From Candidatus Babeliales bacterium (lineage in GTDB: Bacteria > Babelota > Babeliae > Babelales > JANWKD01): DNA of 64,000 nucleotides. The stretch is from contig CAVRJM010000001.1 of the NCBI GenBank assembly GCA_963722075.1, positions 1,210,864-1,274,863 on the forward strand, written 5' to 3'. A program made the position numbers and the translations under genes. Below are positions 3,740-33,125 of this stretch, piece by piece. The stretch's first letter is position 1, and each line of letters opens with the position of its first letter. The notes beneath the pieces are model-generated. The model made no database searches. It worked only from the letters and a program-made list of their open reading frames with translations, and was not told where the DNA came from.

Positions 3740-4408
3740 ATGAAGTCTATTAAAATTATGTTTTTTCTTAGTTCGGTTTTTCTAATAATATCATTGCAAT
3801 CTAATGGTTTAAAAACTCCCGATGATTTCTTGTTTTTTGCCATTAAACAGTTTGGGCCAAGTTGGGATTCTTCTCCGGCTGTTAGAGAGCAATTAGAAAA
3901 AGGTGCCAACCCTAATGCTCAAAAGAAGGGCAAAACGGCGATTATGCAGGTAATTGAAGAAAAGTATGCCGGGAAAAACCGTATTAAACCATTGCTATTA
4001 TTATTAGAACGTACAAATAATGTTGACTTTGTTGCTGATAATGGGATGACTGCGCTTACCTTTGCGGCATCATTAGGTGACGATGATATGGTTAATGTAT
4101 TATTAGAAAATGGTGCTAATCGTTATAAGAAAGATGCCTACGGCATGGATTATCTCGATTATATTGTGGAAAATGAGATCTATGAAAATAAACCAAATGA
4201 GCTAAAAGCAATTAGAATAGAACGAGAAAAAAATCTTTTAAATAAAGAATTATCAGAGTTTGAGGTTATTCGTTTGCGCCATGAAATTGAAGAAGAAGAA
4301 TATGAGCGGCGCGAACAAAAAGAATGGGAAAAAGTTAGAGAGCTTGATAAAATTATACGAAAAGAATTAAGAGAACTTGAAGAAGGGTGGGAGTTGGTAG
4401 AGGAATAA
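3740..4408 (+). CDS. secreted ankyrin-repeat protein with Glu-rich coiled-coil tail (paralog 1)
   Basis: It has a signal-like N-terminus. ANK motifs include NGMTALTFAASLGDDDMVNVLLENGAN. The tail ends ...ELEEGWELVEE. The stop overlaps the photolyase ATG (TAATG). Confidence 0.8.
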   Translation: MKSIKIMFFLSSVFLIISLQSNGLKTPDDFLFFAIKQFGPSWDSSPAVREQLEKGANPNAQKKGKTAIMQVIEEKYAGKNRIKPLLLLLERTNNVDFVADNGMTALTFAASLGDDDMVNVLLENGANRYKKDAYGMDYLDYIVENEIYENKPNELKAIRIEREKNLLNKELSEFEVIRLRHEIEEEEYERREQKEWEKVRELDKIIRKELRELEEGWELVEE

Positions 4409-5830: not shown

Positions 5831-6448
5831 ATGAATAAAAAATCACCTATTATAACCTTTCTTTTATCAACTGTTTTATTTTCTTTAGAAGCAAATCATA
5901 ATATTGAAAAATATATTCCAAAGATTGCTGAGCAAATTAACGCTCTAGAGTTTTATCACCCAAAAGTTCAAGGATGGACGCCTTTTGAGCAGATAAGTTT
6001 ATTTTTACACCAAGCAGGTTTTAAACAAGAAAAACCAAACCCAAATATTCAAATTGATGGAAAAACTCTTTTGATGTATTTCATGGAAAAAGTAACAGGA
6101 AATCGTATCGAAGCGCTTAAACGTTTATTAAAAGTTTTAAATAATTATATGATGGATATAAATGTAATTGCTGATAATGGGATGACAGCACTTACATTTG
6201 CTGCCTCAAGAAATGATAATGAAATGGTAGAAGGATTAATCACGTATGGCAAAGCTGATGTTAATCAGCCTGATGCATTTGGCAAAACATATAGGGATTA
6301 TTTAATAGAAAATGAAATAAAAAGAAAAGAAAAAGTGGAAGAGGAATTGCGAAGGGAATTTGAGTTTATTCGTACCAAAGAAGAATTGGAAGAAGAGCGG
6401 GAAAAAGAATTAGAAAAAGAACTTGAAGAATGGGAAATAATTGGTTAA
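5831..6448 (+). CDS. secreted ankyrin-repeat protein with Glu-rich tail (paralog 2)
   Basis: It has a signal-like N-terminus. NGMTALTFAASRNDNEMVEGLITYGKADVN is nearly the same ANK as in 3740..4408. The tail ends ...ELEEWEIIG. Confidence 0.8.
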   Translation: MNKKSPIITFLLSTVLFSLEANHNIEKYIPKIAEQINALEFYHPKVQGWTPFEQISLFLHQAGFKQEKPNPNIQIDGKTLLMYFMEKVTGNRIEALKRLLKVLNNYMMDINVIADNGMTALTFAASRNDNEMVEGLITYGKADVNQPDAFGKTYRDYLIENEIKRKEKVEEELRREFEFIRTKEELEEEREKELEKELEEWEIIG

Positions 6449-6473
6449 CCAATTACTATAAATGGAGTGTTGT

Positions 6474-7031
6474 ATGAAAATTAATAAATTATTTTTATTG
6501 GTATCGATGAGTTTTATTGCAAATTTATTTTGTTCATATTCTTTACGCCAAGATATTCCAAACAAAGCATTATTTGATGCTATTGAAAATGCGAATGTTA
6601 ACGCGGTGAGAGTATTGTTAGCAGAAAAAAGAATTAATCCAAATATACCATATCAAGGGAAATCTGCGCTTATTAAAGCAATTACGTTATCAGATCCTAA
6701 TGCAAAAGCAATTGTGGAATTGCTCCTAAAGCATGATGCTAATCCCGATTACATTGATGATTCGGGAATGACTCCTTTAGTAGCTGCTAAATATGTTAAT
6801 AAGCCGGATATTGTTTTGCTGCTATTGCAATATGGGGCTCGGGTAACCACTGATAAAACATTACGTGAAGAGAAAAAGCCTAAAATTACCTGTCCGTATG
6901 AAAAAGGCCTTAAGAAATTAGAAAAAGAATTTTATATGGTGCCTGAAGAGCCTAAAAAAGAAGAAGAGGAATGGACGGTAATCGAAAGCCCTAAATCTGC
7001 ATGGGAGACATTAAAGCGCTGGCTCTATTAA
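6474..7031 (+). CDS. secreted ankyrin-repeat protein with acidic tail (paralog 3)
   Basis: ANK motifs include AVRVLLAEKRINPN, ELLLKHDANPD and SGMTPLVAAKYVNKPDIVLLLLQYGA. The tail reads KKEEEEWTVIESPKSAWETL. The start is moved to ATG 6474 (GGAG upstream; MKINKLFLLVSMSF looks like a signal). Confidence 0.8.
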   Translation: MKINKLFLLVSMSFIANLFCSYSLRQDIPNKALFDAIENANVNAVRVLLAEKRINPNIPYQGKSALIKAITLSDPNAKAIVELLLKHDANPDYIDDSGMTPLVAAKYVNKPDIVLLLLQYGARVTTDKTLREEKKPKITCPYEKGLKKLEKEFYMVPEEPKKEEEEWTVIESPKSAWETLKRWLY

Positions 7032-7564: not shown

Positions 7565-8671
7565 CTAATAATTATGATCCAATACATCAATATATGGCTT
7601 AAACTTAAATAAACGGCCTCTTTTTTGTTGCGTTTCTTCTACTAAGATCCCATTTGCCATAAAATCAGTAATAATTTTATGAGCCGTATTATACGAAGTA
7701 TTGAGCTGCTTACTGAGTTCTTGAATATTAATAATCGGTATCCTAAAAAAAATTGATAATGCTTTTAACCGTGTACGCATGGTTGCGGTTGACTGTTTTT
7801 CTTGCGTAATTTGATCCCGCAGTGAGTGTTCTAATGAAGCGATATCTTTTGCGCGTCGGTGAGCATCAATGCTTGTTTCTTTGATAGCGGTTAAATAAAA
7901 AAGCACCCATCCTTCAAAATCGCCTTTGGTACGTACTTGATCAAGTCGTTGATAATACTCAAGTTGATTCTTTTTAAAATAATAAGAAAGATACAAAATG
8001 GGTTCATCAAGTAATTTGTTATCAATGAGCATAAGTGCGATTAATAATCTACCAATACGGCCATTGCCATCTAAAAAAGGGTGTATGGTTTCAAATTGAA
8101 CATGGGCAAGACCTGCTTTAATAAGCGGCATAGGTTCTTCGCTGTTAATATACTTTTCTAAATCGGTCATTAAATCTGGAATTAATTGTGGTGGTGGTGG
8201 AATTAGAGCGCCCACGCGTACTGGTTGTTTTCGATAATGACCTGGATTGGCTTTTTCGCCTTCTCCTTTCTCCATCAATGTTTTATGCGCAGCAAGAATT
8301 ACGCGCGAAGAAATAGGCAATCCCTCTTTTTTGACCATATCAACTGCTTTATAAATAGCGGTACAGTAGTTCATCACTAGTTGTGTATCCTTACCTGCCT
8401 TGCCGCCGCTTAATGGTTGAGTAAAAACATCTAAAAGCGTAGTGTGAATTCCTTCAATTGAAGAGGATAAAAGCGCTTCTTTAATGACATATGATTTGAT
8501 AAATCGCTTTGGATCGGGTAAACTATTAGTCATCTCGTTTAGTTTGCCCAATTGAAGCATCGCTTCTCCGTATGCATCTATGATTTTTTCATTTAGTAAT
8601 AATGGCGGTTCGTGGGGCGGTAATGAATCAGGTATAAAATAGCTATCTTCGTAATGGCCCGTTATACGCAT
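7565..8671 (-). CDS. Fic-family protein (AMPylase-type) with N-terminal inhibitory helix and C-terminal wHTH
   Basis: The Fic active-site motif HPFLDGNGRIGR is present. An inhibitory-type motif S-x-x-x-E-G (SSSIEGI) lies upstream of it. The C-terminus IQELSKQLNTSYNTAHKIITDFMANGIL is HTH-like. Confidence 0.9.
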   Translation of the reverse strand: MRITGHYEDSYFIPDSLPPHEPPLLLNEKIIDAYGEAMLQLGKLNEMTNSLPDPKRFIKSYVIKEALLSSSIEGIHTTLLDVFTQPLSGGKAGKDTQLVMNYCTAIYKAVDMVKKEGLPISSRVILAAHKTLMEKGEGEKANPGHYRKQPVRVGALIPPPPQLIPDLMTDLEKYINSEEPMPLIKAGLAHVQFETIHPFLDGNGRIGRLLIALMLIDNKLLDEPILYLSYYFKKNQLEYYQRLDQVRTKGDFEGWVLFYLTAIKETSIDAHRRAKDIASLEHSLRDQITQEKQSTATMRTRLKALSIFFRIPIINIQELSKQLNTSYNTAHKIITDFMANGILVEETQQKRGRLFKFKPYIDVLDHNY

Positions 8672-11930: not shown

Positions 11931-11960
11931 TTGACATTTAAAATAAATTAATTTTAACCT
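11931..11960 (+). promoter_or_regulatory. putative promoter (TTGACA-N18-TAACCT) of fibre paralog 1
   Basis: The block TTGACATTTAAAATAAATTAATTTTAA(C/T)CTATCTTAAT is duplicated upstream of both paralogs (also at 15494). This conservation is the main evidence. Confidence 0.3.
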
Positions 11961-12023
11961 ATCTTAATTCCATTAAAATACAAAAAAGAGAGTATACTTT
12001 TTAAAAAAAGGAAAGAGGGTTAA

Positions 12024-15000
12024 ATGAAGAATAGAAGGCTTAAAGTCTTTATTGCCAGAATGGTGATGGTAGGTTTGCTTGTGCAACATGCTGTGCCGTT
12101 GATGGCTGCCTATGAACAAGATTCAGTAAGCGAACAACCAGCTGAAAACTTACCGATTAAGAATAAAAGAGTAAAATCAGAAGACTCTATAGATCCTCAT
12201 GCGCTCATACCAACTGCCGATACGAGTGAACAAATAGTAGTTATTGATGATGAGCAGTTAGAACATTTTATTGCATCTATAGTAAAAACCGTTGCTAGAA
12301 ATGGAACACAGGAAACATTGTCAGAAGAAATGATGATTTTTTGTGAACAATTACTAACCGGTAAAAAAGAATTTTCAGTTGGATTCTTGTGCAAAGTTGT
12401 TCCTCAATTATTAACGCTCGCAAATAAAAGCATGGAAGAAGAACGTGCCATGCGACCGAACGTTGGGTTTCAAGATGGGTCAATAGTTGGTCCATTACTT
12501 TCTTGCAACTTTGACCAAGTTCTTGCCTTGCTTCATCAAATTTTTAATTTTTTAATGCAATGTTGTGCTACCATAGAATTTGATTTAAATGGTGTGTTTA
12601 CCTTATTAAATACTGATTTTAATGGAACCTTTACCTTTCTTAATGAAATAGAAAATACCTTAACTACGTGCTGTGCTACCATAGAAAATGATTTAAATGG
12701 CGTATTTACCTTATTGAATACAGATTTTAATGGAACTTTTACTTTTCTTAATGAAATAGAGAACACCATAACTACATGCTGTGCAATTGTAGAAAATGAC
12801 TTGAATGGGGTATTTACGTTATTGAATACAGATTTTAATGGAACCTTTACCTTTCTTGATGAAATAGAAAATACCTTAACTACGTGTTGTGCAATTGTAG
12901 AAAATGATTTGAATGGAGTATTTACGGCACTTGCAGCTTTAACAGTAACGGTTACGGTTGATTTTACGGATGTATTCACCACGCTTGATGATATTAATAA
13001 TACACTAACTACCTGTTGCGCAATCGTAGAAAATGATTTAAATGGCGTATTTACCGTACTCAATACTGATTTTAATGGGGTTTTTACCGCATTAGCTGAT
13101 TTATCAGTAACGGTCACGGTTGATTTTACGGATGTATTTACCACACTTGATGAAATTAATAATACATTAACTACTTGCTGTGCGATCGTAGAAAATGATT
13201 TAAATGGTGTCTTTACCGCCCTCAATGATATAAGTACATCGTTTACTGTTGATATTACAAATATATTTACCACACTTGAGGATATTAATAATACATTAAC
13301 TACGTGTTGCGCGATTGTAGAGAATGATTTGAATGGCGTATTTACGGTATTAAATACCGACTTTAATGGTACCTTTACTATGTTAACAGATATATTTAAT
13401 ACCCTGACTACTGGTTGTGCATCAATTACACCTTGTAATCCTGTCTTTATTACTCAGGCAGATGTGGGAACGACTGGTTATACCATTACACAATCTGGAG
13501 TGTACTTTCTAAAAGAAAATATTGTATTTAGTCCAGCAACAATATCTGATGCCATTACTATAGAAGCTGATGATGTGCAATTAAATTTACAATGTTTTAT
13601 TTTATCACAAGGTAATGCGCAACCATCTGTGACTGGTATTGTTGTTGTGCCTGGGGTTAATAGCACTACTATCGAAAATGGTACCATCTCGGGATTTACT
13701 AATAATGGTATTAGTGTTGATCTGAGTGTATCGGATTTTACTCTCTTAAATACTGTTATACGTCGAAATGGCTCTGGTCTATTTTTAGATGGAGTAGTAG
13801 GATCCCCTGTTTCAAATTTTATTGTTAGAAATGTGGAATTTAATTCCAATCTTATTGGGTTGGTTATGACAAATGCTAATAATGGGATTATCCAAGGTTC
13901 AATTTTGTCACGTAACAAAACTGGTATAATGATGACTGATTGCTCTGGCAATGTTATTTCACAATGTGATATTAATCAAACGGTACAAACTGATCAGGAA
14001 AGCGCGTATGGTATAATTGCTCAAGGGGGATCTAATAATCGATTTGAAAGATGTATAATCGATGGCACTTCAACAATGGCAACCACATCAGCATTTGAGG
14101 CAACTGGTTTGTATATTGGGAGTGATGAGCAAGGCGATCTTATTGTGTGGAATCAAATAAGCAATTCAACGACATCTTCAAATGCTTTTGCCTATGGTAT
14201 CCATATGGATTACACCTTTATTGGGACTAGTACAGAAGGCATGCCGAGCATTGTAAGTACTAATACTATTATGAAGCTTGCTTGGTCACCAAGCGATAAA
14301 TACTTAGGAGTCAATTTTGGCTTTTCGGAAAAGATATACGAATTTGACCTTGCTAATGATCAATTTGTACAAGTAGCAAGCGTTACAACACCAAGTGCTA
14401 CTTCTGGATTAAGCTGGTCACCTGATGGATCATTTATAGCTTTTAGCGATCAATCGGGTGCGATAAATATCTATTCATTTGCCGGTACTACACTTAATTT
14501 TGTAACAAGTTTTGATGTTTCACCCAACATCCCACAAGCTGTCGCATGGTCACCTGATGGGCGATTTATAGCGGTAGGGACATCGGCAGGATCTTCTGGT
14601 GAAGAGATTATATTGGAATTTAATGGATCCTCATTAAGTCAAGTAGCAAGTTTTAGTTCGACCTTTGCACCATTATCAATAGCATGGGCTCCTGAGGGAG
14701 ATTTTCTTGCAGTTGGAACGACCGAAAATGTGATAGTGCTTAAATTTGTATCGGGTATTACTTTAACGCAGGTCGCTATTGCTACTCCTTTTGCACCAGT
14801 ACCTGCAGTTGATTGGGCAGTCGATGGAAGATCGATTGTTACTGCTCAAAATACAGGAACGCAAAAAGTGGTTGTATATTCATTTTCAGGAACATCGCTT
14901 ACTATCCAAGCCACGGTTAATAATTCTATAATCATTAATGATGTAAAATGGAGCCCTGACGGCAACTATGTAGTTATGGTTAGTGATACAGGGGGAGTAA

Positions 15001-15419
15001 ATGATACGCATATATTTAAATATACTGGAGTGTCCTTAGTAGATGTAGCTGATATAAATCATGGTGCTAACATAAATAGTGCTTCATGGTCACATGGCGG
15101 TGCCTACATAGCCATTGGGGGACAACCACCATCTAATGAAGCAGAACAAACGCTCAATCCATTTTTATTCCCCGTAAATATTATTCGTAATAATGAAATT
15201 TATAATATTCATGGACCAGCGCTTGCAGCAGGAATTCCAGGATATTCTACTGGCAGAGCGTTAAGTGCTTCATCTAATACCAGTTTAATTATACAAAATA
15301 CTGCATTTAATAATGATGTTAATTATGTTTTTGTTACTAATACATATCAACAATTTTTAGCAAATACACAAAGTATGTTCCCTAACTTATTATCCAACAT
15401 GTTCTTTCCACCGCTATAA
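12024..15419 (+). CDS. secreted repeat-stalk / parallel beta-helix / 7-blade beta-propeller protein (paralog 1)
   Basis: 1131 aa with a signal/anchor (FIARMVMVGLLVQHAVPLMAA). It has 7 vicinal-Cys repeats. Beta-helix-type repeats include NGTISGF..NGISV, VIRRNGSGLFL and ILSRNKTGIMM. Seven AWSPDGxxIA-type blades follow. The C-terminus is shared with paralog 2 (LIIQNTAFNNDVNYVFVTNT). Confidence 0.85.
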   Translation: MKNRRLKVFIARMVMVGLLVQHAVPLMAAYEQDSVSEQPAENLPIKNKRVKSEDSIDPHALIPTADTSEQIVVIDDEQLEHFIASIVKTVARNGTQETLSEEMMIFCEQLLTGKKEFSVGFLCKVVPQLLTLANKSMEEERAMRPNVGFQDGSIVGPLLSCNFDQVLALLHQIFNFLMQCCATIEFDLNGVFTLLNTDFNGTFTFLNEIENTLTTCCATIENDLNGVFTLLNTDFNGTFTFLNEIENTITTCCAIVENDLNGVFTLLNTDFNGTFTFLDEIENTLTTCCAIVENDLNGVFTALAALTVTVTVDFTDVFTTLDDINNTLTTCCAIVENDLNGVFTVLNTDFNGVFTALADLSVTVTVDFTDVFTTLDEINNTLTTCCAIVENDLNGVFTALNDISTSFTVDITNIFTTLEDINNTLTTCCAIVENDLNGVFTVLNTDFNGTFTMLTDIFNTLTTGCASITPCNPVFITQADVGTTGYTITQSGVYFLKENIVFSPATISDAITIEADDVQLNLQCFILSQGNAQPSVTGIVVVPGVNSTTIENGTISGFTNNGISVDLSVSDFTLLNTVIRRNGSGLFLDGVVGSPVSNFIVRNVEFNSNLIGLVMTNANNGIIQGSILSRNKTGIMMTDCSGNVISQCDINQTVQTDQESAYGIIAQGGSNNRFERCIIDGTSTMATTSAFEATGLYIGSDEQGDLIVWNQISNSTTSSNAFAYGIHMDYTFIGTSTEGMPSIVSTNTIMKLAWSPSDKYLGVNFGFSEKIYEFDLANDQFVQVASVTTPSATSGLSWSPDGSFIAFSDQSGAINIYSFAGTTLNFVTSFDVSPNIPQAVAWSPDGRFIAVGTSAGSSGEEIILEFNGSSLSQVASFSSTFAPLSIAWAPEGDFLAVGTTENVIVLKFVSGITLTQVAIATPFAPVPAVDWAVDGRSIVTAQNTGTQKVVVYSFSGTSLTIQATVNNSIIINDVKWSPDGNYVVMVSDTGGVNDTHIFKYTGVSLVDVADINHGANINSASWSHGGAYIAIGGQPPSNEAEQTLNPFLFPVNIIRNNEIYNIHGPALAAGIPGYSTGRALSASSNTSLIIQNTAFNNDVNYVFVTNTYQQFLANTQSMFPNLLSNMFFPPL
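12561..13412 (+). repeat. in-frame tandem repeat array: 7 units of 36/43/54 aa starting with Cys-Cys
   Basis: Units read CCA(T/I)(I/V)ExDLNGVFTxLNTDFNGTFTFLxEIENTLTT. Counted lengths are 36,36,36,43,54,43,36 aa (284 aa total), built from roughly 11-aa sub-repeats. Confidence 0.85.
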
Positions 15420-15438
15420 TATATGAGGTAGTTAGCAA

Positions 15439-15475
15439 GGGTCTCATCTATTAATGCATGAGACCCTTTTTATTT
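15439..15475 (+). terminator. rho-independent terminator
   Basis: The stem GGGTCTCAT/ATGAGACCC is followed by a T-rich tract directly after the stop of paralog 1. Confidence 0.65.
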
Positions 15476-15493
15476 TTATAAAAATTTAATGTA

Positions 15494-15523
15494 TTGACAT
15501 TTAAAATAAATTAATTTTAATCT
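15494..15523 (+). promoter_or_regulatory. putative promoter (TTGACA-N18-TAATCT) of fibre paralog 2
   Basis: This is a duplicate of the block at 11931. The downstream RBS AAAGGAGAGAGGG is also conserved. Confidence 0.3.
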
Positions 15524-15581
15524 ATCTTAATCCAACACAAAAAAGAGAGTATATTTTTTAAAAAAAAGGAGAGAGGGTTAA

Positions 15582-18500
15582 ATGAAGAATAGAAAGCTTA
15601 AAATCTTTATTGCCAGAATGGTAATGGTAGGTTTGCTTGTGCAACATGCTGTGCCGTTGATGGCTGCCTATGAACAAGATTCAGTAAGCGAACAACCAGC
15701 TGAAATAACCTTATCAGTTCAAGGTAAAAGAGTAAAATCAGAAGATTCTATAAATTCTAATGTACTCATACCAACTGCCGAGACGAGTGAACAAATAGTA
15801 GTTATTGATGATGAGCAGTTAGAACATTTTATTGCATCTATAGTAAAAACCGTTGCTAGAAATGGAACACAGGAAACATTGTCAGAAGAAATGATGATTT
15901 TTTGTGAACAATTACTAACCGGTAAAAAAGAATTTTCAGTTGGATTCTTGTGCAAAGTTGTTCCTCAATTATTAACGCTCGCAAATAAAAGCATGGAAGA
16001 AGAGCGTGCCATGCGACCGAACGTTGGGTTTCAAGATGGGTCAATAGTAGGCCCATTACTTTCTTGCAACTTTGACCAAGTTCTTGCCTTGCTTCATCAA
16101 ATTTTTAATTTTTTAATGCAATGTTGTGCTACCATAGAATTTGATTTAAATGGTGTGTTTACCTTATTAAATACTGATTTTAATGGAACTTTTACTTTTC
16201 TTAATGAAATAGAAAATACCTTAACTACATGCTGTGCAATTGTAGAAAATGACTTGAATGGGGTATTTACGTTATTGAATACAGATTTTAACGGAACCTT
16301 TACCTTTCTTGATGAAATAGAAAATACCTTAACTACGTGTTGTGCAATTGTAGAAAATGATTTGAATGGAGTATTTACGGCACTTGCAGCTTTAACAGTA
16401 ACGGTTACGGTTGATTTTACGGATGTATTCACCACGCTTGATGATATTAATAATACACTAACTACCTGTTGCGCAATCGTAGAAAATGATTTAAATGGCG
16501 TATTTACCGTACTCAATACTGATTTTAATGGGGTTTTTACCGCATTAGCTGATTTATCAGTAACGGTCACGGTTGATTTTACGGATGTATTTACCACACT
16601 TGATGAAATTAATAATACATTAACTACTTGTTGCGCGATTGTAGAGAATGATTTAAATGGTGTCTTTACCGCCCTCAAGGATATAGGTATAACGTTTACT
16701 GTTGATATAACAAATATATTTACCACACTTGAAGATATTAATAATACGTTAACTACGTGTTGTGCCAATATTGAATTCGATTTTAATGGCATATTTACCA
16801 CAGTTACCGATATAATTGCATCAGTATCGACTGATTTTACGCTAGCCCTTACAACGCTAATAGAAATTAATAATACCTTAACGGAATGCTGCGCAAATAT
16901 TACCAATGAATTTAATGGTACCTTTACCGTGCTCAATGATATTGAAAATACCCTTACAACATGCTGTGCAACCGTAGAAACTGATTTGAACGGGGTATTT
17001 ACGTTATTGAATACAGATTTTAACGGGACCTTTACCTTTCTTAATGAAATAGAGAATACCTTAACTACGTGCTGTGCAATTGTAGAAACTGATTTGAATG
17101 GGGTATTTACGCTATTAAATACCGATTTCAATGGTACCTTTACGGTACTTGCAAGTTTAATGCCTGCCTGCCCTAACACAGTAATTACACAATCGGCGGT
17201 AAATGCGAGTGGTGGCACCTATACCATTTCTAATCCTGGTAATTATTCTTTATCTTCAGATATTACCTCAACAGCAGCAACCATTATTGTTATTGATGCT
17301 GATCAAGTAACGTTAGATCTGTGTGGACGTTCAATTATTGGGGCCGGCGTAGATAGTGGTGATCAAATTGGAATTACCGTAGAAGCGGGCCTTTCAGATA
17401 TTGCAATCACGAATGGTGATATAACTAATATGAGTATGGACGGTATTTTTGTAAATAGCGGCGTTTCCGATTTAAGCATAAGCAATATTGCGGTAAATAA
17501 TACCGGAAGATCAGGTATTAATCTTGAAGGAAACAGTGAATCATTAATTACCGAAGTAGTTATTAATAACTGCACAATTTCTTTAACGGCAACGGGGGCT
17601 ACAGGAATTGCAGGGCTAGTTTTAAATAATTGTGATACGGTAGCGGTGCAAGGTGGAAATTTTGATCGTAATGGATCACTAACTAATGTTGCAGGAATAT
17701 TAGTTAATGCATGTAATGATTGTGTAATCGATGCAGCCACTATGAATCTTAATACCAGTACCGGGTTATTATTAGTAGATTCTCAAAATTCAGTAGTCAA
17801 TAATGTGGTAATATCAAGAAACACGGGAGCAGGTATCGATCTTTCAGGAAGCTCATTTAATACATTTAATAATTGCGCTATAACGCGTACTGTTGCAACT
17901 GCTAATAACAGTGCTTATGGTATTAGAGCATTAGGCGGTGGTAGCAATAGATTTGAAAATTGTATAATTGATGGTACCTCGACTGCCGCAACAAGTTCAG
18001 ATTTTGAAGCAACAGGTATCTTGATTGGTAGTGACGAACAAGCGGATATTATTATAAATAATCAGGTCTCTAATTCTACAGCTTCATCATCAGGATTACC
18101 ATTTGGCATTCATATGGATTATACCTTTACTGCATTAAGTAATTCAAGCCTTCCATCAATTACTATTGGCACTACTATTGATAAAGTAGCATGGTCTCCT
18201 AATGATAAATATTTGGCAGTAAGTTTTGGAACTTTGTCTACAACCATTGCAGTTTATGCATTTGATAGAGATATCTTAGATTTAGTACAAGTCGCTACAG
18301 TTGCTCTTACTAACGCATGTCAAGATTTAGCGTGGTCCCCTGATGGCACTTATTTAGCAACGGTTGAGCCAAATGGTGTTAATGGTTTATTGCGAGTGTT
18401 CTTATTTAATGGTGTAAGTCTAAATCAAATAGCAACAGCAGCAGTAGGAACCGATGGTGGGGTTCCTGAATCGGTAAGTTGGAATGCTAATGGTAGATTT

Positions 18501-19367
18501 ATAGCGGTTGTTGGAAATGCGACTTCATTAACGCGTGTAAATGCAGACCCTACCGTTTATGTTTTTGAGTTTACTGGTTCTTTACTTAATCAAGTTGCAA
18601 CTACTGGTGTAGCAGGTACCGTAAATGCTGTTGCATGGGGCCCGCAAAATAATTATCTTGCGGTGGGTGCAATAGGGCTTTTAGATGTATTTAAATTTAC
18701 TGGTGGAACCACCTTAACGCTTGCTGCATCATTGTCCCTTGGTACTGATTCAGCCAATTCTGTTGATTGGGCGGTTGATGGTCGAACCTTGGTAATAAGT
18801 AATACTACTGGAATCTCAGTTGTTGAATTTACTGGAGTTGCGTTAACGCCAATAACAAGCGTATCAACTGGTGTTCAAGTGAATGATGCCCACTGGAGTT
18901 CTGATGGGCAATATGTGGTTATTGGGCAAAATGAAATAGCGGGAGGCGATGTAAAAGCGTATCTATATAATGGTACTTCTTTAACGCTTGAAAGTTCATA
19001 TACGCATGGAGCTAATGTCAGTTCAGTTGCTTGGTCTCGTGGTGGTGAATTTATTGCTATCGGTGGAAATGTATCTGGTGGTAAAACGGAAGAAACACTT
19101 TTTGGGTTAGTGTTTCCTGCTAATACCATTATAAGAAATAATGAAGTTTCAGGAGTGAGCGGGCCAGCGCTTGCAAGTGGAACTCCTGGGTTTTCAACGG
19201 GTCGCGGGATTAGTGCATCTTCAAATTCGAATTTAATTATACAAAATACGGCATTTAATAATGATGTTAATTACGTATTTGTGACGAATACCTTTTCCCA
19301 ATTTATTGCAAATACAGCAAGTCAATTCCCAAGTAATTTAGCTAATTTATCATTCCCTCCATTGTAA
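15582..19367 (+). CDS. secreted repeat-stalk / parallel beta-helix / 7-blade beta-propeller protein (paralog 2)
   Basis: 1261 aa. After residue ~66 the N-terminus up to the repeat array is identical to paralog 1. It has 9 Cys-Cys repeats, a longer beta-helix, seven AWSPDG-like blades, and a conserved C-terminus. Confidence 0.85.
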   Translation: MKNRKLKIFIARMVMVGLLVQHAVPLMAAYEQDSVSEQPAEITLSVQGKRVKSEDSINSNVLIPTAETSEQIVVIDDEQLEHFIASIVKTVARNGTQETLSEEMMIFCEQLLTGKKEFSVGFLCKVVPQLLTLANKSMEEERAMRPNVGFQDGSIVGPLLSCNFDQVLALLHQIFNFLMQCCATIEFDLNGVFTLLNTDFNGTFTFLNEIENTLTTCCAIVENDLNGVFTLLNTDFNGTFTFLDEIENTLTTCCAIVENDLNGVFTALAALTVTVTVDFTDVFTTLDDINNTLTTCCAIVENDLNGVFTVLNTDFNGVFTALADLSVTVTVDFTDVFTTLDEINNTLTTCCAIVENDLNGVFTALKDIGITFTVDITNIFTTLEDINNTLTTCCANIEFDFNGIFTTVTDIIASVSTDFTLALTTLIEINNTLTECCANITNEFNGTFTVLNDIENTLTTCCATVETDLNGVFTLLNTDFNGTFTFLNEIENTLTTCCAIVETDLNGVFTLLNTDFNGTFTVLASLMPACPNTVITQSAVNASGGTYTISNPGNYSLSSDITSTAATIIVIDADQVTLDLCGRSIIGAGVDSGDQIGITVEAGLSDIAITNGDITNMSMDGIFVNSGVSDLSISNIAVNNTGRSGINLEGNSESLITEVVINNCTISLTATGATGIAGLVLNNCDTVAVQGGNFDRNGSLTNVAGILVNACNDCVIDAATMNLNTSTGLLLVDSQNSVVNNVVISRNTGAGIDLSGSSFNTFNNCAITRTVATANNSAYGIRALGGGSNRFENCIIDGTSTAATSSDFEATGILIGSDEQADIIINNQVSNSTASSSGLPFGIHMDYTFTALSNSSLPSITIGTTIDKVAWSPNDKYLAVSFGTLSTTIAVYAFDRDILDLVQVATVALTNACQDLAWSPDGTYLATVEPNGVNGLLRVFLFNGVSLNQIATAAVGTDGGVPESVSWNANGRFIAVVGNATSLTRVNADPTVYVFEFTGSLLNQVATTGVAGTVNAVAWGPQNNYLAVGAIGLLDVFKFTGGTTLTLAASLSLGTDSANSVDWAVDGRTLVISNTTGISVVEFTGVALTPITSVSTGVQVNDAHWSSDGQYVVIGQNEIAGGDVKAYLYNGTSLTLESSYTHGANVSSVAWSRGGEFIAIGGNVSGGKTEETLFGLVFPANTIIRNNEVSGVSGPALASGTPGFSTGRGISASSNSNLIIQNTAFNNDVNYVFVTNTFSQFIANTASQFPSNLANLSFPPL
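16123..17150 (+). repeat. in-frame tandem repeat array: 9 Cys-Cys units (25-54 aa)
   Basis: The unit family is the same as at 12561-13412. Some blocks are nearly identical at DNA level to paralog 1. Units 6-9 have no counterpart there. Confidence 0.85.
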
Positions 19368-19386
19368 TATAATAAGCTAAAATCAA

Positions 19387-19416
19387 AGCCGAGTAGTTTT
19401 CTACTCGGCTTTTTTA
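19387..19416 (+). terminator. rho-independent terminator
   Basis: A 10-bp stem (AGCCGAGTAG/CTACTCGGCT) with loop TTTT is followed by T5, after the stop of paralog 2. Confidence 0.7.
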
Positions 19417-19831: not shown

Positions 19832-20236
19832 ATGGTTAATATAAGAAATTTTTTACTTTTAATAATGATAACTTTTATTGGTTTAATAAGCGCTGTTGCT
19901 AAATATAAGGTTCCGGTAATAACGGAAAAAGAAGTAATGGCTATTTTAGCACCGATTGAAGTACCAGTGGAAACAGCTCAGAAAGTTAAATGTTATTGTT
20001 CATTTAAATGTGGGCCACGAGATGTTAAGCCTGATGATACGCCATTTTATGATGAAGAAGTTGGTGTCTGTTTTTGCAAAAAACGTGACCAAGAAGCCTA
20101 TGCGCAACCAGTTCATGAATGTCATAAAAAAAAGAATGTTGATTTTCCTAATTCATGTGGTAGAAAGCAGTTCTTTAGAACGCCTAAAAATATTCCGGCT
20201 ACTACTTCTTCAACTACTGTTCCGGCAAATAAGTAA
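19832..20236 (+). CDS. small secreted Cys-rich protein, hypothetical
   Basis: 134 aa with AGGAGA upstream and a signal-like N-terminus. Eight Cys residues occur in KCYCSFKCG...GVCFCKK...HECH...NSCG. Confidence 0.6.
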   Translation: MVNIRNFLLLIMITFIGLISAVAKYKVPVITEKEVMAILAPIEVPVETAQKVKCYCSFKCGPRDVKPDDTPFYDEEVGVCFCKKRDQEAYAQPVHECHKKKNVDFPNSCGRKQFFRTPKNIPATTSSTTVPANK

Positions 20237-20572: not shown

Positions 20573-23500
20573 ATGCAATTTTTTTTATTAATTCTATTAA
20601 CATTTTTTGTTTCGCTTTACAGTGAAGGTTCCCTTAAAGAATTATCGTCCCAGAACAGCTTCATAGAGATTGGCGTAGTGCGTGCACCACGACCATCAAC
20701 TACTGAGGGCGGATTTATTGGTTTAGCAGGCCTCTTTACAACAACTCCTTCTATTACTGAAATAGAAAATATTGTATTTAATAGCGGATTCATCCAGGGC
20801 CCGATAGCTTCTACTATAGATGCGGTACCTCGTTTTGCTAATACAACCGGAAACCTTTTAAAAAATTCATTAGTGTTGGTGGATGATGCAGGTAATATTA
20901 CGATTAATGGCATCACTAAAAATGGTAATACGGTATCATGGCCTTCTATTGTAGGAGCTGCAGGAACTTTTTTAGGAAGTGATGGTGTTGGGAATTTAAT
21001 TTATTCAACACCTGTTGGTAGTGGCAACGTATCAACAGCACTTCCTTTCACCACTAATGATGCTATTACTACCGTAGATATATTAAGCGGTTCACATGAT
21101 ATCAAGCAAACAAGCGTTACCATTGATAGTAGTGATAATATTAATGGCATTAATTCTCTCAATGCTAATGTAGTCAATGCTCCCGCCTTAAATGGAAATG
21201 CAACATCTGCAACAACTGCAGGAAGTTTTACTGGTGTACTTGCTGGTGACGTAACAGGGCCGCAAAGTGCGACGGTGGTAAATTTTGTCGGAGGCCAATC
21301 GGCAGCAAATGTAGCAGCGGCAACCGTGCTTGCCAATGCGGCAACAAGTAGTGACGTGCCAAATACATTGGTGTTACGTGATGGATCTGGCAACTTTGAA
21401 ACTAATATGATTACTATTGATGGTACGGTAACCAATCCAACTGATGTGGCCACCAAACAATATGTGGATGATGCGGTATTAACTGGTTTTGTTATTAAGG
21501 CGCCTGCTGTTGCATATGGTGCATCTAATATTACATTGTCTGGTCTTCAAACTATTGATGGGGTGGCACTTAATTCTAATGATCGCGTGTTGTTGAATGC
21601 TCAAACAAATCCGGTACAAAATGGCTTATGGTTAGCTCAAGTGGGTGCATGGACGCGGCCTGCTGATTTTGCTTCAGGGACTCAAGCGGAACGATCATAT
21701 GTACTTATTACTTTAGGCACTGTTTTTGAAGGATCAAGTTGGGTTTGTGCTACACCAAATGCGATTATTGATACCGATCCTATAACATTTATTGAATTTT
21801 CGTTACCCAATCAGACGACGGGGGCAAACGTTGGTGTGGGTCAAGGACAGATATTTCAAAGTAAAACCGGAAATACACTCAACTTTAGAACAATTCTTGC
21901 TGGTCCACATATAGTGGTGACTAATGATCCCAATGATGTCATGATTTCTACGGATGCTACGAATGCAGATACGCCCAATACAATAGTGCTCCGTGATGGC
22001 TCAGGCAATTTTTCTGCCAGTACTATTACGGCGGCCTTAACCGGTGCTGCATCATTAAACGTACTTAAAGCCGGTGATACGATGACGGGCAACCTCAATT
22101 TAGCGTTGCAATCACAGCTTCGTTTGCAAGATTCAACGGGTAGCGGCAGTTATGTTGGCTTGGATGCACCTGCTGTTGTTCCAGTAAGTTATACCGTAAA
22201 TTTACCAGCAAGCGCGCCGACAACGGGCCAAGTGTTACAAGCAACCTCACCAACGGCATTACAATGGGCGACTGTTGGTGGTTCGACTATTAGTGAGGCA
22301 TATTATGTGGAGCTTAGTGGTAGTGATGCAAATAACGGTTCTTTCTCAGCCCCATTTAGAACGGTAGCGCATGCCGTAAATGTGGCAAATGGCGTTGCGA
22401 GCCTAGCTAATCCGATAGTTATTCATGTAGGAGCGGGTATATTTGTAGAAAATAACAGCGGTGGCCCAATAACTATTAGTGCAGATGGCATTAGCATTGT
22501 AGGAAGCTCCAATTCTGGTACCACGATTGTGCCAACTTCATTAACCAATGATCTATTTAATATAGCCGCGGCAAATGTTGAATTTGATAATTTTACCATT
22601 TCAATATCTAATTCTACCTCAACCGGAAATGCAATTACATTATCAACGAGCAGCGCTGGGTTAGCAACTTTTAATACCATAACTATTATTGGTGCATTTA
22701 ATAATGGTTTTAATTTAAGTACCAGTGTGGGATCATCGTCAGTAGCCTTTAATAACATTTTAACAGGCGGATGCACTACCGCGATCTCATTAAATAATAT
22801 GCAATGCGTAATCAAAAATTCACTTTTTCAAGGATCATTAACAACAACGCCAGCTAATACCGGTTTTTCAATTACGGGAACCAATTCAATCATTTATGTA
22901 CTTGGGAGTTTATTACGCTTATGTAATACCGCATTATCAATTACGGGGGGTGCTAATATTCATGTTATTGGAACTACTATAGAATCTAGTATTAATGGCA
23001 TAGTGGCAAACGGTGGCAGTATTGTAGAAATGGTGGGCGATAACTTTTCGTTTAATAGTCCTAGCTCTATAAATGTATTTGCATCGGGTGCTAACACGAA
23101 CGTAACGGTTGATGGTTGCCAATTTGCCTGCGCTGATATGGCGGGAAATTCACAAGGCACTGCGGTGCAAGCAACTAATCAAGGGACCATATTGCTTGTT
23201 GGATCAAGTATTGAATATGCAGTATTAGGGATACAATGTGGCGCGGTGAGTGATACCAGTGCTACTTCTATCCGCGCAAATGCTACAACGCTTATAGGAT
23301 GTACTACCGATATACAACAATTAGGAAGTTCTACTTTTAGATTTGTAGGCGGGGTATTTGATGTTAATAAAATAAGCATAGCTAATGCAACAAATGTTAC
23401 CTTTGCTGCTTTTGATCGCACCAACAATGAAACATTAGCATTAGGTAGTAATGCTGACACTAATCAAACATTATTTGAGGTATTAAATGCACAACCGACG

Positions 23501-26500
23501 TTGCCTTATCTTCAATATATGTCAAATTATTATGGTGCAAAAGGACCGGTATATGTAAATCCAAATGCTGATCCTACCTTAAACGGTGTTCAGGCGCAAA
23601 GTAATAACGCTTCTTATTTTGTGGTGACGGGTGACAATACCAAACAAACAGGAATTAATTTATTTTCTGATACCGCAAATTTTGGCAATTCAGATAATAT
23701 ACGTGGTTGGGGAATCACCAAAGTAGGATCCTCTGCGGCATTAACATTTGTTTATACTAATAATGATTCTTCAGGCCAAGCATTACGTGGCTCAAATACG
23801 GTAATGCAACTTAACGGATTTGATAATCAAGTGGAATTCCCCCTTGCAACTAATGCACCGCTGCCAACTAATACGGTGGCAAAACTTGTGTGGGCAGGTG
23901 ATACCGATTTATATCGCTCTGCCGCTAATACTTTACAGACAGATGGTAATTTAGTTGTTGGTAGCTTAACACCAGCGGGAGTGGTCCATAATAATAATAC
24001 CGGTTTACTATCTACTTCACTCATAGTAAATGCCGATATAAGTAACAGCGCAGGAATTACTGATAATAAATTAGCAACCATTAGTACACCAGGAAAAGTA
24101 GCAAACTCAGCAACCACCGCAACGAGTGCGAATGTTCCAAATACCATTGTATTGCGTGACGGTTCAGGAAATTTTGCAGCAGGCACTATTACGGCATCAT
24201 TAATTGGTGCTGCGTCACTGAACGTGCTGAAGACCGGTGACACCATGACTGGCAACTTATTAATGGCAAACCAATCACAACTGCAATTCCAGGATAGCAC
24301 GAGTGGTAATTATGTAGCGATAGATGCACCAACAACCGTAGCTGCTACTTATACCGTTAGTTTACCCGCAACGGCACCACTGAGCGGTCAAGTATTGCAA
24401 GCAACATCGCCAACTACCCTCACCTGGGCATCGGTAGGTGGTTCCCCTGCGGTTGCTAAAACATATTATGTTGCTTTAAATGGTAATGATAGCAATGACG
24501 GATCATTTGATGCGCCATTTAGAACCGTTGCGCATGCAGTGAGCGTAGCAAATGGGGTTGCAAGTAGCGCAAATCCTATTGAAATTAGTATTATTGGAGC
24601 AGGAATATTTATTGAAAATAATTCAGGAGGTCCAATTACCGTAACTGCTGAAGGTATAAATATTATTGGTAGTTCAAATCAAGCAACTATTATAATGCCC
24701 ACAACGGCGGCAAATGACCTTTTTAGTATAGTAGTTCCCTCAGCAAAATTTGAGGCTTTTCAAGTAGCGTTATCGGGAGTTGGGTCGACCGGGAATGCGG
24801 TTACGTATAATGCAGGTCCTATCGGTGTTGTTACTATCGATAGAGTTGCGGTAAACGGGTCTTTTAATAATGCTTTTGCAATAAACGCAACTTCTGGTAC
24901 TCCAACAATAATATTAAATAATATTTTATGTGGCGGCTGTGTTAATGCCATTTCGATTACTAATGCGCAATGCGTTATTAAAAATTCTATTTTTCAAGGA
25001 TCATTGACAGCAAGCCCAGCAAATAATGGTATAAGCATTACCGGAACGAATGCTATTGTATTTTGTCTGAGTAACGTATTTAAATTATTTGCTAATGCTA
25101 TAAGTGTAACGGGTGGTGCAAGTGTTCGCATCTTGGGATCTAATTTTGAATCTACTACTAATGGATTAGCTGCATTAGGAGATAGTAACTTAACGATTGT
25201 TGGTTGCAACTTCATACTTAATAATCCAAGCTCAATAAATATTGCAGCTGCAGGGGCAAATACTGCTATTACGGTAGATGGATGTCAATTTCAATGCAAT
25301 GATGCAACGGGCAATCCACAAGGGACGGCACTTAAAGTAACAACAGGTGCATCAATACTTGCCGTTGGATCTTCTATTACAAATGCTGTAGTAGGTATTC
25401 AATGTGGTACAGCGGGAGACGCCAATACCACCGTAATGCGTGCGAATGCTACTACTTTAATTGGCTGTACTACTGATATTGTACAAACAAGTAGTTCAGC
25501 ATTATTTTTTATTGGTGGGGTATTTGACTCAAATAAGTTATCTTTTGCAAATCCAGCAAATGTTAGTTTTAGCGCATTTGATAGAACAAATAATGATGCA
25601 TTGACGCTCGGCAATGATGCTGATACTAATCAAATGTTAATACAAGTTTTAAACGGTGAGTCACTATTTCCAAATTGGGCATATCGATCGAATTATTACG
25701 GTACTAAAGGAGTTGTTTACGAAAATCAAAATAGTGACGCAACCTTTAATGGCGTGCAAGCGCAAAGTAATAATGCATCATATTTTGTAGTTACGGGAAA
25801 TAATGCCGCTCAAGCGAGCATAAATCTTTTATCCGATACAGCAAATTTTGGTAACCCTAACTCCGAGAATGTTCGTGGCTGGAGCATTGTTAAAACAGGT
25901 ACATCTGCCGACTTAGCATTTACCTATACTAATAACGATTCATCAGACCAAGCATTGCGCGGTTCTAATACCGTGATGCAACTTAATGGTTTTGATAATC
26001 AAGTAGAATTTCCTATTGCAACTAATGCACCGCTGCCAACTAATGCGGTAGCAAAATTAGTATGGGCTGGAGACACCGATTTATACCGTTCAACTACAGC
26101 AACGTTAGCAACTGATGGTAATTTAATTGTTGGCGCATTAACGCCTGCTGGTGTAGTGCATAATAGCAATACAGGATTACTTTCTACCTCGCTAATTGTA
26201 AATGCTGATATCAGCCCAGCCGCTGGGATTACTGATGATAAACTGGCAACCATTAGCACACCAGGAAAAGTTGCCAATTCTGCTACCACCGCAACGAGTG
26301 CTGATACGCCAAATACCATTGTACTGCGCGATGGTTCAGGAAATTTTGCAGCCGGCGCTATTACGGCATCATTAATCGGTGCTGCATCATTGAATGTGCT
26401 CAAGACTGGCGACACGATGACCGGTAATTTATTAATGGCAAACCAATCGCAAATACAATTCCAGGATAGTACCAGCGGTAATTATGTTGCAATAGATGCA

Positions 26501-32399: not shown

Positions 32400-33125
32400 T
32401 TATTTTAAAATTGTTTGTTTGATTTCAAAAATTTTCTTAAAAAGTTCAAGGTCTTCTTGATGAGTAAATACAAAATATACTTTTTTAATGAAATGGTGCT
32501 TTCGTTGTGTTTCATTGATAATCGTCTTTATAGCAATTTCAGCGGCTTCTTGTTTGGGGAATCCATAAATGCCACTTGAAATAAAGGGGAAGGCTATAGA
32601 TTCATTCTCTTTATATTCCCCGGCAGATCGAAAGGCTTCTTGGTAACAATTAATTAAAATCTGCTGTGCCTGTTTTTTATCTGAATAAGCCGAATAAATA
32701 GGCCCCACCGCATGTACAATGAACTTAATGCCGTAATTAGCTTCTAAATTAAAACTCGGTGTTATAACGGCTTCTCCTGGCTCTATGCCTTTAGGAAAAT
32801 GAGTTTTAATATATTCTTCTAGGGCGTGTGTTTTGCCTTGTGCAGCTTCAAAAATGGCGCCACAAACGCCGCCACCAGGTAATAGGTATTTATTGGCTGC
32901 ATTTACAATAGCATCAATTGGCAACGTAGTAATATCTTTTTTGATCAATACAAAAGTAACCTTATTGATAATGAATTCATACTGATTAGCTGGTTGCGCT
33001 GTTGAGGCAACGGATTGGTGTTGAATAAGATATTCAGGATCTTTATGATGAAGTGCAAAATCAGGAAGAATGGCATGAGCGGTTTTAAATAAATGCAAAA
33101 AGAAAATAAATGTTAAAGATTTCAT
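32400..33125 (-). CDS. macro domain protein (ADP-ribose binding/hydrolase family) with signal peptide
   Basis: The macro-domain signature AIVNAANKYLLPGGGVCGAIFEAAQG and the later FPFISSGIYGFP are present. The N-terminus MKSLTFIFFLHLFKTAHA is Sec-like. Confidence 0.8.
   Translation of the reverse strand: MKSLTFIFFLHLFKTAHAILPDFALHHKDPEYLIQHQSVASTAQPANQYEFIINKVTFVLIKKDITTLPIDAIVNAANKYLLPGGGVCGAIFEAAQGKTHALEEYIKTHFPKGIEPGEAVITPSFNLEANYGIKFIVHAVGPIYSAYSDKKQAQQILINCYQEAFRSAGEYKENESIAFPFISSGIYGFPKQEAAEIAIKTIINETQRKHHFIKKVYFVFTHQEDLELFKKIFEIKQTILK

Follow-up and report, generated by a model that had tools for sequence, protein, structure and literature searches.

What does a protein build from a chain of units that each begin with two adjacent cysteines, and why do two neighboring genes for such a protein agree almost completely over their 5′ parts and differ in the number of units and in what follows them? 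Both questions are raised by a locus of a Candidatus Babeliales bacterium that lies in a window of 64,000 nucleotides (nt) (the window being the whole stretch of DNA that was analyzed; assembly GCA_963722075.1, contig CAVRJM010000001.1, positions 1,210,864 to 1,274,863 of the forward strand). Two tandem open reading frames (ORFs) on the plus strand, termed gene 1 and gene 2 herein, each encode a long array of Cys-Cys units (coordinates are collected in Table 1). We consider it rather probable that the two products belong to a family of exported, fiber-like proteins in which a coiled-coil stalk, stapled by disulfides and probably of at least three strands, carries a binding head, and in which the stalk and the rest of the 5′ part have been homogenized between the paralogs while the heads diverged.

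The units were defined by splitting the translations of both ORFs at Cys-Cys. Gene 1 contains seven pairs, at amino acids (aa) 180, 216, 252, 288, 331, 385, and 428, with six spacings of 36, 36, 36, 43, 54, and 43 aa and a final unit that runs into a degenerate TTGC site; gene 2 contains nine pairs between aa 181 and 497, with eight spacings of 36, 36, 43, 54, 43, 43, 25, and 36 aa. Unit lengths of 25, 36, 43, and 54 aa were found overall, and Tandem Repeats Finder independently returned periods of 108, 129, and 162 nt. An earlier description of this DNA, made from its letters alone (the sequence-only reading), had counted seven and nine units, had given their lengths as 36, 43, and 54 aa, and had proposed a sub-repeat of about 11 aa. 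The counts were borne out, the sub-repeat is real, and all three lengths occur, the 25-aa unit of gene 2 having been overlooked. The remaining ORFs of the window with 150 aa or more together contain just five Cys-Cys dipeptides in 14,760 residues, and the units are therefore far from anything expected by chance. The composition of the arrays (12561-13415 and 16122-17162) is restricted to about 13 amino acid types, with no Pro, His, Gln, Trp, or Tyr; Thr makes up 21% of the residues, Asn 12 to 13%, and Gly 4 to 5%. Charge is one-sided, with zero or one Lys plus Arg compared to 40 to 48 Asp plus Glu, which gives a net charge between about −40 and −47. The recurring DFNGT motif fits the bacterial D/E-x-N-x-S/T glycosylation sequon. 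On the opposite strand, ORFs of 245 aa (12536-13273, minus strand) and 373 aa (16097-17218, minus strand) span the arrays and mirror the repeats ("...NTPFKSFSTIAQ..."); they are most likely artifacts of stop-free repetitive sequence and not genes.

The hydrophobicity spectrum of each array has a single dominant peak, at a period of 3.60 residues (gene 1) or 3.59 residues (gene 2), with a spectral power of 429 and 478, respectively, against a median of about 3 (2.7 for gene 1). At a period of 3.6, the observed power of the gene 2 array was 378, whereas none of 2000 shuffles exceeded 59. Along the arrays, the hydrophobic moment kept a constant local phase (R = 0.95 for gene 1 and 0.84 for gene 2), and the small drift that remained fits a period slightly below 3.6. 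The arrays therefore show the property by which coiled coils were to be recognized here, a periodicity of 3.5 to 3.67 residues sustained at constant phase. The units also correspond to nearly whole numbers of helical turns (7 turns for 25 aa, 10 for 36, 12 for 43, and 15 for 54), so that all Cys pairs would come to lie on one nearly straight seam, and the two Cys residues of each pair flank the direction of the hydrophobic moment, for example, at about −34 and +66 degrees.

The same arrangement was found throughout the family. In 323 family segments centered on Cys-Cys, the hydrophobic positions are −10, −7, −3, 0/1, 4, 8, 11/12, 15, 18, and 22, a 3-4 pattern that continues unbroken through the Cys pair, with the pair replacing adjacent core positions. 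Likewise, 625 Cys-Cys spacings from 153 retrieved proteins were phase-locked at a period of 3.6 (R = 0.60, mean phase −8 degrees) and showed no coherence at periods of 2, 3, 4, or 5; the commonest spacings were 25, 36, 11, 29, 43, 18, and 54. Cys residues at core positions and at spacings that preserve the phase, one mark of a disulfide-stapled coiled coil, are thus present in the two arrays and in their relatives.

AlphaFold2 monomer models were produced for gene 1, from a 57-sequence alignment, and for P0030, a relative with a short array, from 16 cleanly aligned sequences. In both models, DSSP assigned long helices in the array, at a low predicted local distance difference test score (pLDDT) of about 30 to 60, and no confident intramolecular packing was seen. 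Taken with the periodicity, this makes a single amphipathic α-helix without interruptions the most likely structure of the array, about 300 (gene 1) to 365 (gene 2) residues in length and most likely built of heptad and hendecad segments, which at 1.5 Å per residue would be about 45 to 55 nm long. Such a helix would be characteristic of an oligomeric coiled-coil rod.

Two other folds of a single chain have to be weighed here. The high Thr content, the TxT-like motifs (TFT, TLT, and TVTVTV), and the position of the array directly next to a β-helix would suit a Thr-rich, Cys-laddered β-solenoid, similar to insect antifreeze proteins, that extends the C-terminal β-helix. Such a solenoid can hardly be credited when the dominant period is 3.6 and the power near period 2 is several times lower, when the Cys-Cys spacings give R = 0.07 to 0.19 at period 2 versus 0.51 to 0.60 at 3.6, and when DSSP gives helix in the array of both models. 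It is also conceivable that the array folds back on itself as an antiparallel bundle or zig-zag, with Cys pairs bonded within the chain, to give a compact, disulfide-rich, monomeric domain. The helices of the gene 1 model are indeed broken (163-199, 205-233, 241-304, 315-336, 376-402, and 412-464), and turns are conceivable at the NG dipeptides and at the TVTVTV inserts. However, the breaks fall at non-equivalent positions of the repeats and are of low confidence, no confident packing accompanies them, and the hydrophobic phase is coherent over the whole array, which arbitrary loops would destroy. Moreover, the number of pairs is odd (seven and nine), orthologs with a single unit have no partner unit in the same chain, and units of variable length would misalign the Cys pairs in hairpins. 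We regard a fold-back of this kind as unlikely.

If the array is a long straight helix, its Cys pairs would occupy two adjacent core-flanking positions, like d and e of a hendecad. In the assembly that we propose, several parallel chains, aligned in register, would form a coiled-coil rod about 45 to 55 nm long, and Cys i of one chain would bond with Cys i+1 of its neighbor, so that each pair would become a closed inter-chain disulfide ring. Adjacent Cys residues of the same chain would form a strained disulfide, which a helix is not expected to contain. In a crude geometry of straight parallel helices, the Cβ-Cβ distance from Cys i to Cys i+1 of the neighbor was 3.6 to 5 Å for three to five strands and 5 to 6 Å for a dimer; the vicinal pair therefore suits closed inter-chain rings in bundles of at least three strands, and a trimer or larger bundle would fit better than a dimer. 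In the 57-sequence alignment, conservation of C180 and C181 is at least 90%, and the subfamily of 16 sequences shows little or no variation at any of its four Cys pairs. Since the array has almost no Lys or Arg and so many acidic residues, parallel chains would repel each other unless covalent links or bound cations held them, and the disulfide staples would be what holds the stalk together. Judged from the sequences, the array is probably a parallel coiled-coil stalk of at least three strands with inter-chain disulfide rings.

A sister subfamily (P0059, P0068, P0069, and P0086) has one Cys per unit, in the motif TQTI(I/L)CEKFE.TW, with Ile-Cys or Leu-Cys in place of Cys-Cys. Ile or Leu at the first Cys fits a core position, and at least P0069 has a head of the same type, a β-helix plus propeller. 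The substitution can also be counted for a helical stalk without inter-chain disulfides, in which Cys acts as a hydrophobic core residue and stays reduced, chelates metal, or is acylated by host enzymes after delivery. Three-stranded coiled coils can bind heavy metals in their Cys layers, and a Cys-Cys motif is a typical site of palmitoylation. The organism lives within eukaryotic cells (PMC6561590), whose cytosol is reducing. These points are opposed by the Sec-type signal peptides, with which the proteins would pass the periplasm or reach the cell exterior, by the near invariance of the pair across the family, where it is more conserved than other core positions, and by the mutual repulsion of the acidic chains already mentioned. 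Stalks with free, metal-bound, or acylated Cys therefore appear improbable to us.

Several observations weigh against the stapled helical stalk that we prefer. The pLDDT of the array is about 30 to 60 in both models, and it is chiefly the periodicity that argues for a helix; poor helix formers are abundant in the stalk (Thr, 21%; Asn, 13%; Gly, 4 to 5%), and the TVTVTV inserts of the 43- and 54-aa units have a β-like pattern and are coil in AlphaFold2. As the single-Cys sister subfamily shows, the pair is not strictly required. No Dsb disulfide-forming enzyme was seen in the window, no search having been aimed at Dsb. Finally, minimal orthologs lack the N-domain described below but keep the C-terminal tail, and either end of the protein may be the anchored one.

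The order of the spacings lends itself to a further, more speculative idea, to which we give little credence: the spacing may serve as a register code, in that only chains with an equal order of unit lengths could form every ring, and the rings may serve as a redox latch. If so, the orders 36-36-36-43-54-43 in gene 1 and 36-36-43-54-43-43-25-36 in gene 2 would lead to homotypic, in-register rods despite identical N-domains, outside the host the rings would keep a self-repelling stalk locked, and the reducing cytosol would open them, upon which the stalk would splay or free its heads. The two together would be a new kind of redox-triggered bacterial surface fiber, to which the disulfide-cross-linked envelope of chlamydial elementary bodies would be a loose analogue.

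The stalk would be one part of a longer protein. The gene 1 product consists, in order, of a Sec-type signal peptide, a disordered linker, a small N-domain, the array, a β-helix, a β-propeller, and a C-terminal tail. In the translations, the N-terminus of both products resembles a Sec signal peptide, so both genes would encode Sec-exported, fiber-like proteins. In the gene 1 model, aa 29-68 have a pLDDT below 50 and are predicted to be a disordered linker, and the N-domain was modeled with a pLDDT of 76 to 91 over aa 70-140. The N-domain has Cys residues that are conserved in the family and the consensus motif RPxxxxxxxxVGPxxxC, and it gave no match in a Pfam search.

The sequence-only reading had called the C-terminal halves enzymatic, for which we find no support: no catalytic family of Pfam or NCBIfam was matched in either head, and the heads consist of a β-helix followed by a seven-bladed WD40-like propeller. 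PF13229 was matched with 32.8 bits in gene 1 and 56.1 bits in gene 2 (cut-off, 25.9), and the gene 1 β-helix was modeled confidently, with a pLDDT of 87 to 98 over aa 471-660 and 71 to 95 over aa 661-730; a Pfam score above the cut-off and a confident model together identify a right-handed β-helix. For the gene 1 propeller, the Pfam families WD40, ANAPC4_WD40, and PD40 all scored above their cut-offs, and Foldseek against the PDB gave a match to WDR61 (E = 1.5e-12, target template modeling score [TM-score] of 0.76), with target TM-scores of up to 0.78 among the matches, so that repeat families and fold agree on a seven-bladed WD40-like propeller. In gene 2, Pfam propeller families cover aa 860-1163. 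In P0030, the β-helix is closest in structure to the Sf6 and Pam1 tailspikes and to Klebsiella capsule depolymerases (E of about 3e-5 to 1e-4, TM-scores of 0.3 to 0.4), which makes binding or cleavage of glycans by the β-helix possible. In the proposed fiber, the rod would carry the β-helix and β-propeller as a presumably ligand- or glycan-binding head.

The C-terminal tail of about 85 residues is 70% identical between the paralogs, compared to 40 to 46% for the heads. Its consensus is ...(A/S)N(L/M)(S/F)FPPL, and the NLSFPPL ending also occurs in the head orthologs P0065 and P0155-P0162; even orthologs without stalk and N-domain retain the FPPL tail. Conserved C-terminal endings of a different kind are seen in other subfamilies, for example, ...GLTGPFAGxNLF(I/M). 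The tail may be a sorting, anchoring, or assembly signal.

How widespread the family is was examined with the gene 2 array as the query against 1.84 billion cluster representatives, which gave 126 proteins at E ≤ 1e-3, of which 22 also passed E ≤ 1e-30; among the lowest-scoring matches, a few are spurious Ser/Thr-rich proteins. All matches with an organism name belong to Candidatus Dependentiae/Babeliales, except for one partial protein filed under Gammaproteobacteria. A first homolog search missed the query's own proteins though they are present in the collection, and absence from its list is no evidence of absence. The gene 1 product is identical to database protein P0057 and the gene 2 product to P0154, both on one 1,418,565-bp NCBI/ENA contig, which carries at least four more members (P0030, P0033, P0043, and P0054).

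Within this family, the number of units varies on one and the same head. P0155, P0156, and P0158-P0162 have one Cys-Cys unit, no N-domain, and the same head with the ...NLSFPPL end, and P0065 combines this head and end with seven units in a different length order. The same type of head therefore carries one, seven, or nine units in different genomes, and relatives reach about 46 pairs, which points to a stalk that is a modular spacer of adjustable length. Variation in cassette number, anticipated from the sequence alone, is thus seen between genomes; the further suggestion of antigenic variation is without basis in an organism that parasitizes protists. Scans of genome and metagenome contigs with the N-domain plus array revealed no close relatives of the locus, and a search with the head revealed no near-identical variant. 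An identical copy of P0030 is found on short contigs of two other public assemblies (GCA_052916205.1, contig JBLFKQ010457127.1, and Logan ERR10755947), which means that reads exist for this organism or for one very close to it.

Known families gave little to compare with. NCBIfam and PHROG contain no family for the array or the proteins, tblastn of the N-domain plus array against 50,697 phage records gave no match, and a PDB sequence search with the array returned nothing meaningful, the best match being PEP carboxylase at E = 1.2. The only Pfam match on the array is to PF04513 (Baculo_PEP_C), with 46.3/54.8 bits for gene 2 against a cut-off of 38, and with scores below the cut-off for gene 1 (32.5 bits), P0025 (27.1), and P0001 (13.4). 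Homology to Baculo_PEP_C was rejected: only gene 2 passes the cut-off, the match falls in several registers (up to six stretches) and is weak in the relatives, and PF04513 is among the Pfam families that most often give spurious overlaps through coiled-coil convergence (PMC3695513). We treat the match as a resemblance in periodicity. In the Dependentiae genomics papers that a term search covered, no β-helix, adhesin, or coiled-coil family is mentioned, and one of them is also silent on disulfides and cell surface proteins.

The second question, why the paralogs share their 5′ parts, was addressed by global DNA alignment and direct comparison of the two genes. The first 120 nt are 97.5% identical, aa 67-215 of the proteins are 100% identical, and two homogenized tracts, A and B (Table 1), cover much of the shared region. 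In the unit after tract B, identity falls to 91%; the last units are weakly related (73%), and the DNA of the heads is about 55 to 65% identical. The sequence-only reading had described the proteins as identical between about residue 66 and the first repeat and had noted long near-identical DNA blocks in the arrays, and this is what the alignment gave, identity changing in blocks and not decaying uniformly. At four-fold synonymous sites, 49 of 53 are identical in tract A and all 64 in tract B (113/117 together), compared to 20 of 56 in the β-helix and 18 of 67 in the propeller (38/123), where such sites are saturated. This contrast between tract and head requires gene conversion or recombination, as selection at the protein level cannot yield it. 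Synonymous sites that are identical within a tract and saturated outside it, together with block-like boundaries, are the pattern expected of gene conversion, and the sequence-only reading had named gene conversion or unequal recombination as the cause.

Consistent with this, an unrelated metagenome-assembled genome of Candidatus Dependentiae (GCA_023379005.1) has three tandem paralogs in which about 450 nt of the array are 100% identical and the β-helix parts and heads are 40 to 70% identical, an independent recurrence of the pattern. According to our proposal, gene conversion or recombination would keep the 5′ part (the promoter-proximal region, the signal peptide, the N-domain, and the first five shared units) nearly identical, the heads would be free to diverge while the stalk is homogenized, and gain or loss of whole units would change their number and thereby set the length of the stalk.

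Gene 1 has one extra 36-aa unit (u2), as had been noticed from the sequence and as the unit-to-unit DNA identities confirm. Gene 2 was said to have four extra units; there are three (u6 to u8), unless the last units, related at 73%, are counted as non-orthologous. Unit u2 was also considered as a clean hybrid of its neighbors, the product of a recent unequal crossover, and this was rejected owing to its private substitutions. It differs from its neighbors at 13 to 15 of 108 nt, so it is not a recent gain, and the indel predates the last homogenization. Amid the homogenized region, a patch that encodes the linker (aa 41-66; 12144-12221 versus 15702-15782) is divergent, with 10 aa differences in 26 residues and a one-codon (3-nt) indel; the codons of identical residues are the same at 15 of 16 positions, and the changes are nearly all non-synonymous.

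The mosaic might instead stem from a single recombination event that joined the shared 5′ module to the head of another family member. This head swap concerns the mosaic only and is compatible with the stapled stalk or with any of the structural alternatives to it. The modularity of the family speaks for it, as the same head occurs with one, seven, or nine units and many different heads follow similar arrays, and so does the presence of at least four further members on the same 1.42-Mb contig. Yet the shared part is layered (100%, 97 to 99%, 91%, and then 73% identity) and contains an older indel, which suggests more than one event; the heads are clearly homologous from end to end and agree in domain order and tail; and the independent genome shows the same pattern among three paralogs. 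A head swap is in our view somewhat unlikely, and it differs from conversion, which is recombination as well, only in direction and number of events. Homogenization of a stalk with divergence of heads, the course that we favor for gene 1 and gene 2, is an already known evolutionary pattern.

Known systems resemble the proposed fiber in some respects each. One is the extracellular domain of PLVAP, whose crystal structure shows a parallel dimeric coiled coil in which five disulfides link the chains at intervals of 11, 25, 21, and 25 residues (PMC10083539). Like the proposed stalk, it is a long helical rod with core Cys at phase-preserving spacings, and in PLVAP, the parallel, in-register chains are stapled. 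In contrast to the array, with its vicinal pair in a bacterial repeat, PLVAP is an animal membrane protein and a dimer with one Cys per layer; there is no sequence relationship, and by simple geometry the pair of the array fits better to at least three strands. Stapling by phase-spaced core Cys is thus known already from PLVAP, and what is new lies in a vicinal pair that recurs at adjacent core positions, in the composition free of basic residues, and in the lineage.

Coiled-coil stalks that contain hendecads and other non-heptad segments are known from trimeric autotransporter adhesins and from tetrabrachion. They share with the array a period near 3.6, which results from segments of 7 and 11 residues, the use of a rod to hold a head away from an anchor, and polar or unusual core residues; α/β coiled coils are a further non-heptad comparison (PMC4786415). 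Neither of the two proteins has a Pfam or NCBIfam match to a YadA-type anchor or another adhesin family, and they are not classed as trimeric autotransporters, from whose stalks the array differs by its C-terminal heads, its Cys-pair ladder in the core, and its lack of Lys/Arg salt bridges.

Inter-chain Cys knots of trimeric stalks are found in the C-terminal Cys-Cys of collagen III and the N-terminal Cys of collectins. There, as proposed for the array, two adjacent Cys per chain allow a closed ring of three disulfides in a trimer, and the short neck plus head of the collectin type resembles the one-unit orthologs. The knots occur once, at the end of a triple helix, whereas the motif of the array occurs seven to nine times (up to about 46 times in relatives) in a predicted α-helix. 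Phage tailspikes and tail fibers combine, like this family, a conserved proximal part with a divergent distal β-helix head, and P0030 resembles them in fold. They differ in that our proteins gave no PHROG match and no tblastn match among the phage records, the genes lie amid chromosomal housekeeping genes, and the TM-scores are 0.3 to 0.4. Sequence homology to phage receptor-binding proteins was not found, and the likeness is confined to a weak fold resemblance of the relative's β-helix.

The features of the two genes are listed in Table 1. A consensus scan found no terminator-like site between gene 1 and gene 2. The hairpin that it did find downstream of gene 2 recurs within the coding sequence of the N-domain of both paralogs (12474-12496 and 16035-16057, plus strand), probably as a chance match. 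A promoter scan of the locus gave fewer sites than shuffled sequence and is uninformative about promoters.

Table 1. Coordinates in the window of gene 1, gene 2, and their parts
Feature	Position	Strand	Description
Upstream region duplicated along with the gene	11942-12023	+	Pairs with 15505-15581; about 83 to 93% identity
Gene 1	12024-15419	+	ORF, 1131 aa; 7-unit Cys-Cys array
Homogenized tract A	12222-12668	+	Pairs with 15783-16229; 6 mismatches in 447 nt
Small α/β N-domain, gene 1	12228-12509	+	About aa 69-162; 100% identical in gene 2
Predicted continuous amphipathic helix, gene 1	12510-13415	+	aa 163-464; about 45 nm if straight; Cys-Cys units from 12561
Extra 36-aa unit u2 of gene 1	12669-12776	+	108 nt; absent from gene 2; 86 to 91% identical to neighbors
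Homogenized tract B	12777-13177	+	Pairs with 16230-16630; 1 mismatch in 401 nt
Right-handed parallel β-helix, gene 1	13437-14228	+	About aa 472-735; PF13229 and AlphaFold2
Seven-bladed WD40-like β-propeller, gene 1	14229-15158	+	About aa 736-1045; Pfam and Foldseek
Conserved C-terminal tail, gene 1	15159-15416	+	Ends ...NMFFPPL; sequence comparison
Gene 2	15582-19367	+	ORF, 1261 aa; architecture of gene 1, with a 9-unit array
Predicted continuous amphipathic helix, gene 2	16071-17162	+	aa 164-527; about 55 nm; Cys-Cys units from 16122
Units only in gene 2	16758-17069	+	u6 (43 aa), u7 (25 aa), u8 (36 aa)
Gene 2 head	17184-19100	+	β-helix, about aa 535-853, then β-propeller, about aa 854-1173
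Conserved C-terminal tail, gene 2	19101-19364	+	Ends ...NLSFPPL
Terminator-like hairpin	19385-19412	+	12-bp stem, then T run, just 3′ of gene 2; consensus scan only

Directly upstream of gene 1 are two different genes for DDE-type transposases (PF01609; 9498-10523 and 10712-11836, both on the minus strand), which may have played a part in rearrangement of the locus. Between gene 2 and a giant downstream gene lies a 134-aa ORF (19832-20236, plus strand) with an N-terminal hydrophobic segment, a Cys-rich C-terminal half, and no Pfam match. The giant gene (20573-31789, plus strand) encodes a fiber-like product of 3738 aa with large internal repeats and many tail-fiber-like "NTIVLRDGSGNF...TITA" segments; its G+C content is 40 to 45%, compared to about 33% around it, and its product ends in a C1q domain (PF00386, aa 3607-3723; 31.3 bits versus a cut-off of 23.7). 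C1q heads are trimeric. A fiber-like neighbor with such an end is unusual in a bacterium, and we count it as context for the interpretation of the array as a stalk. Also flanking the locus are three ankyrin-repeat proteins (3740-4408, 5831-6448, and 6462-7031, plus strand) and proteins with a Fic domain (7565-8671, minus strand) and a macro domain (32400-33125, minus strand). Dependentiae genomes are rich in ankyrin-repeat proteins (PMC6561590).

The mosaic evolution of these genes is in itself ordinary, and gene 1 and gene 2 document it cleanly. A coiled coil with a ladder of vicinal Cys at adjacent core positions and no basic residues would, if the proposal is true, be an unusual, covalently locked rod and possibly a useful design motif. 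For the organisms, the consequence would lie elsewhere. Dependentiae (Babeliales) are intracellular parasites of protists that are widespread and barely studied. With several copies per genome, modular heads, and a stalk whose length would be set by the number of units, this family is a concrete candidate for their host-contact apparatus.

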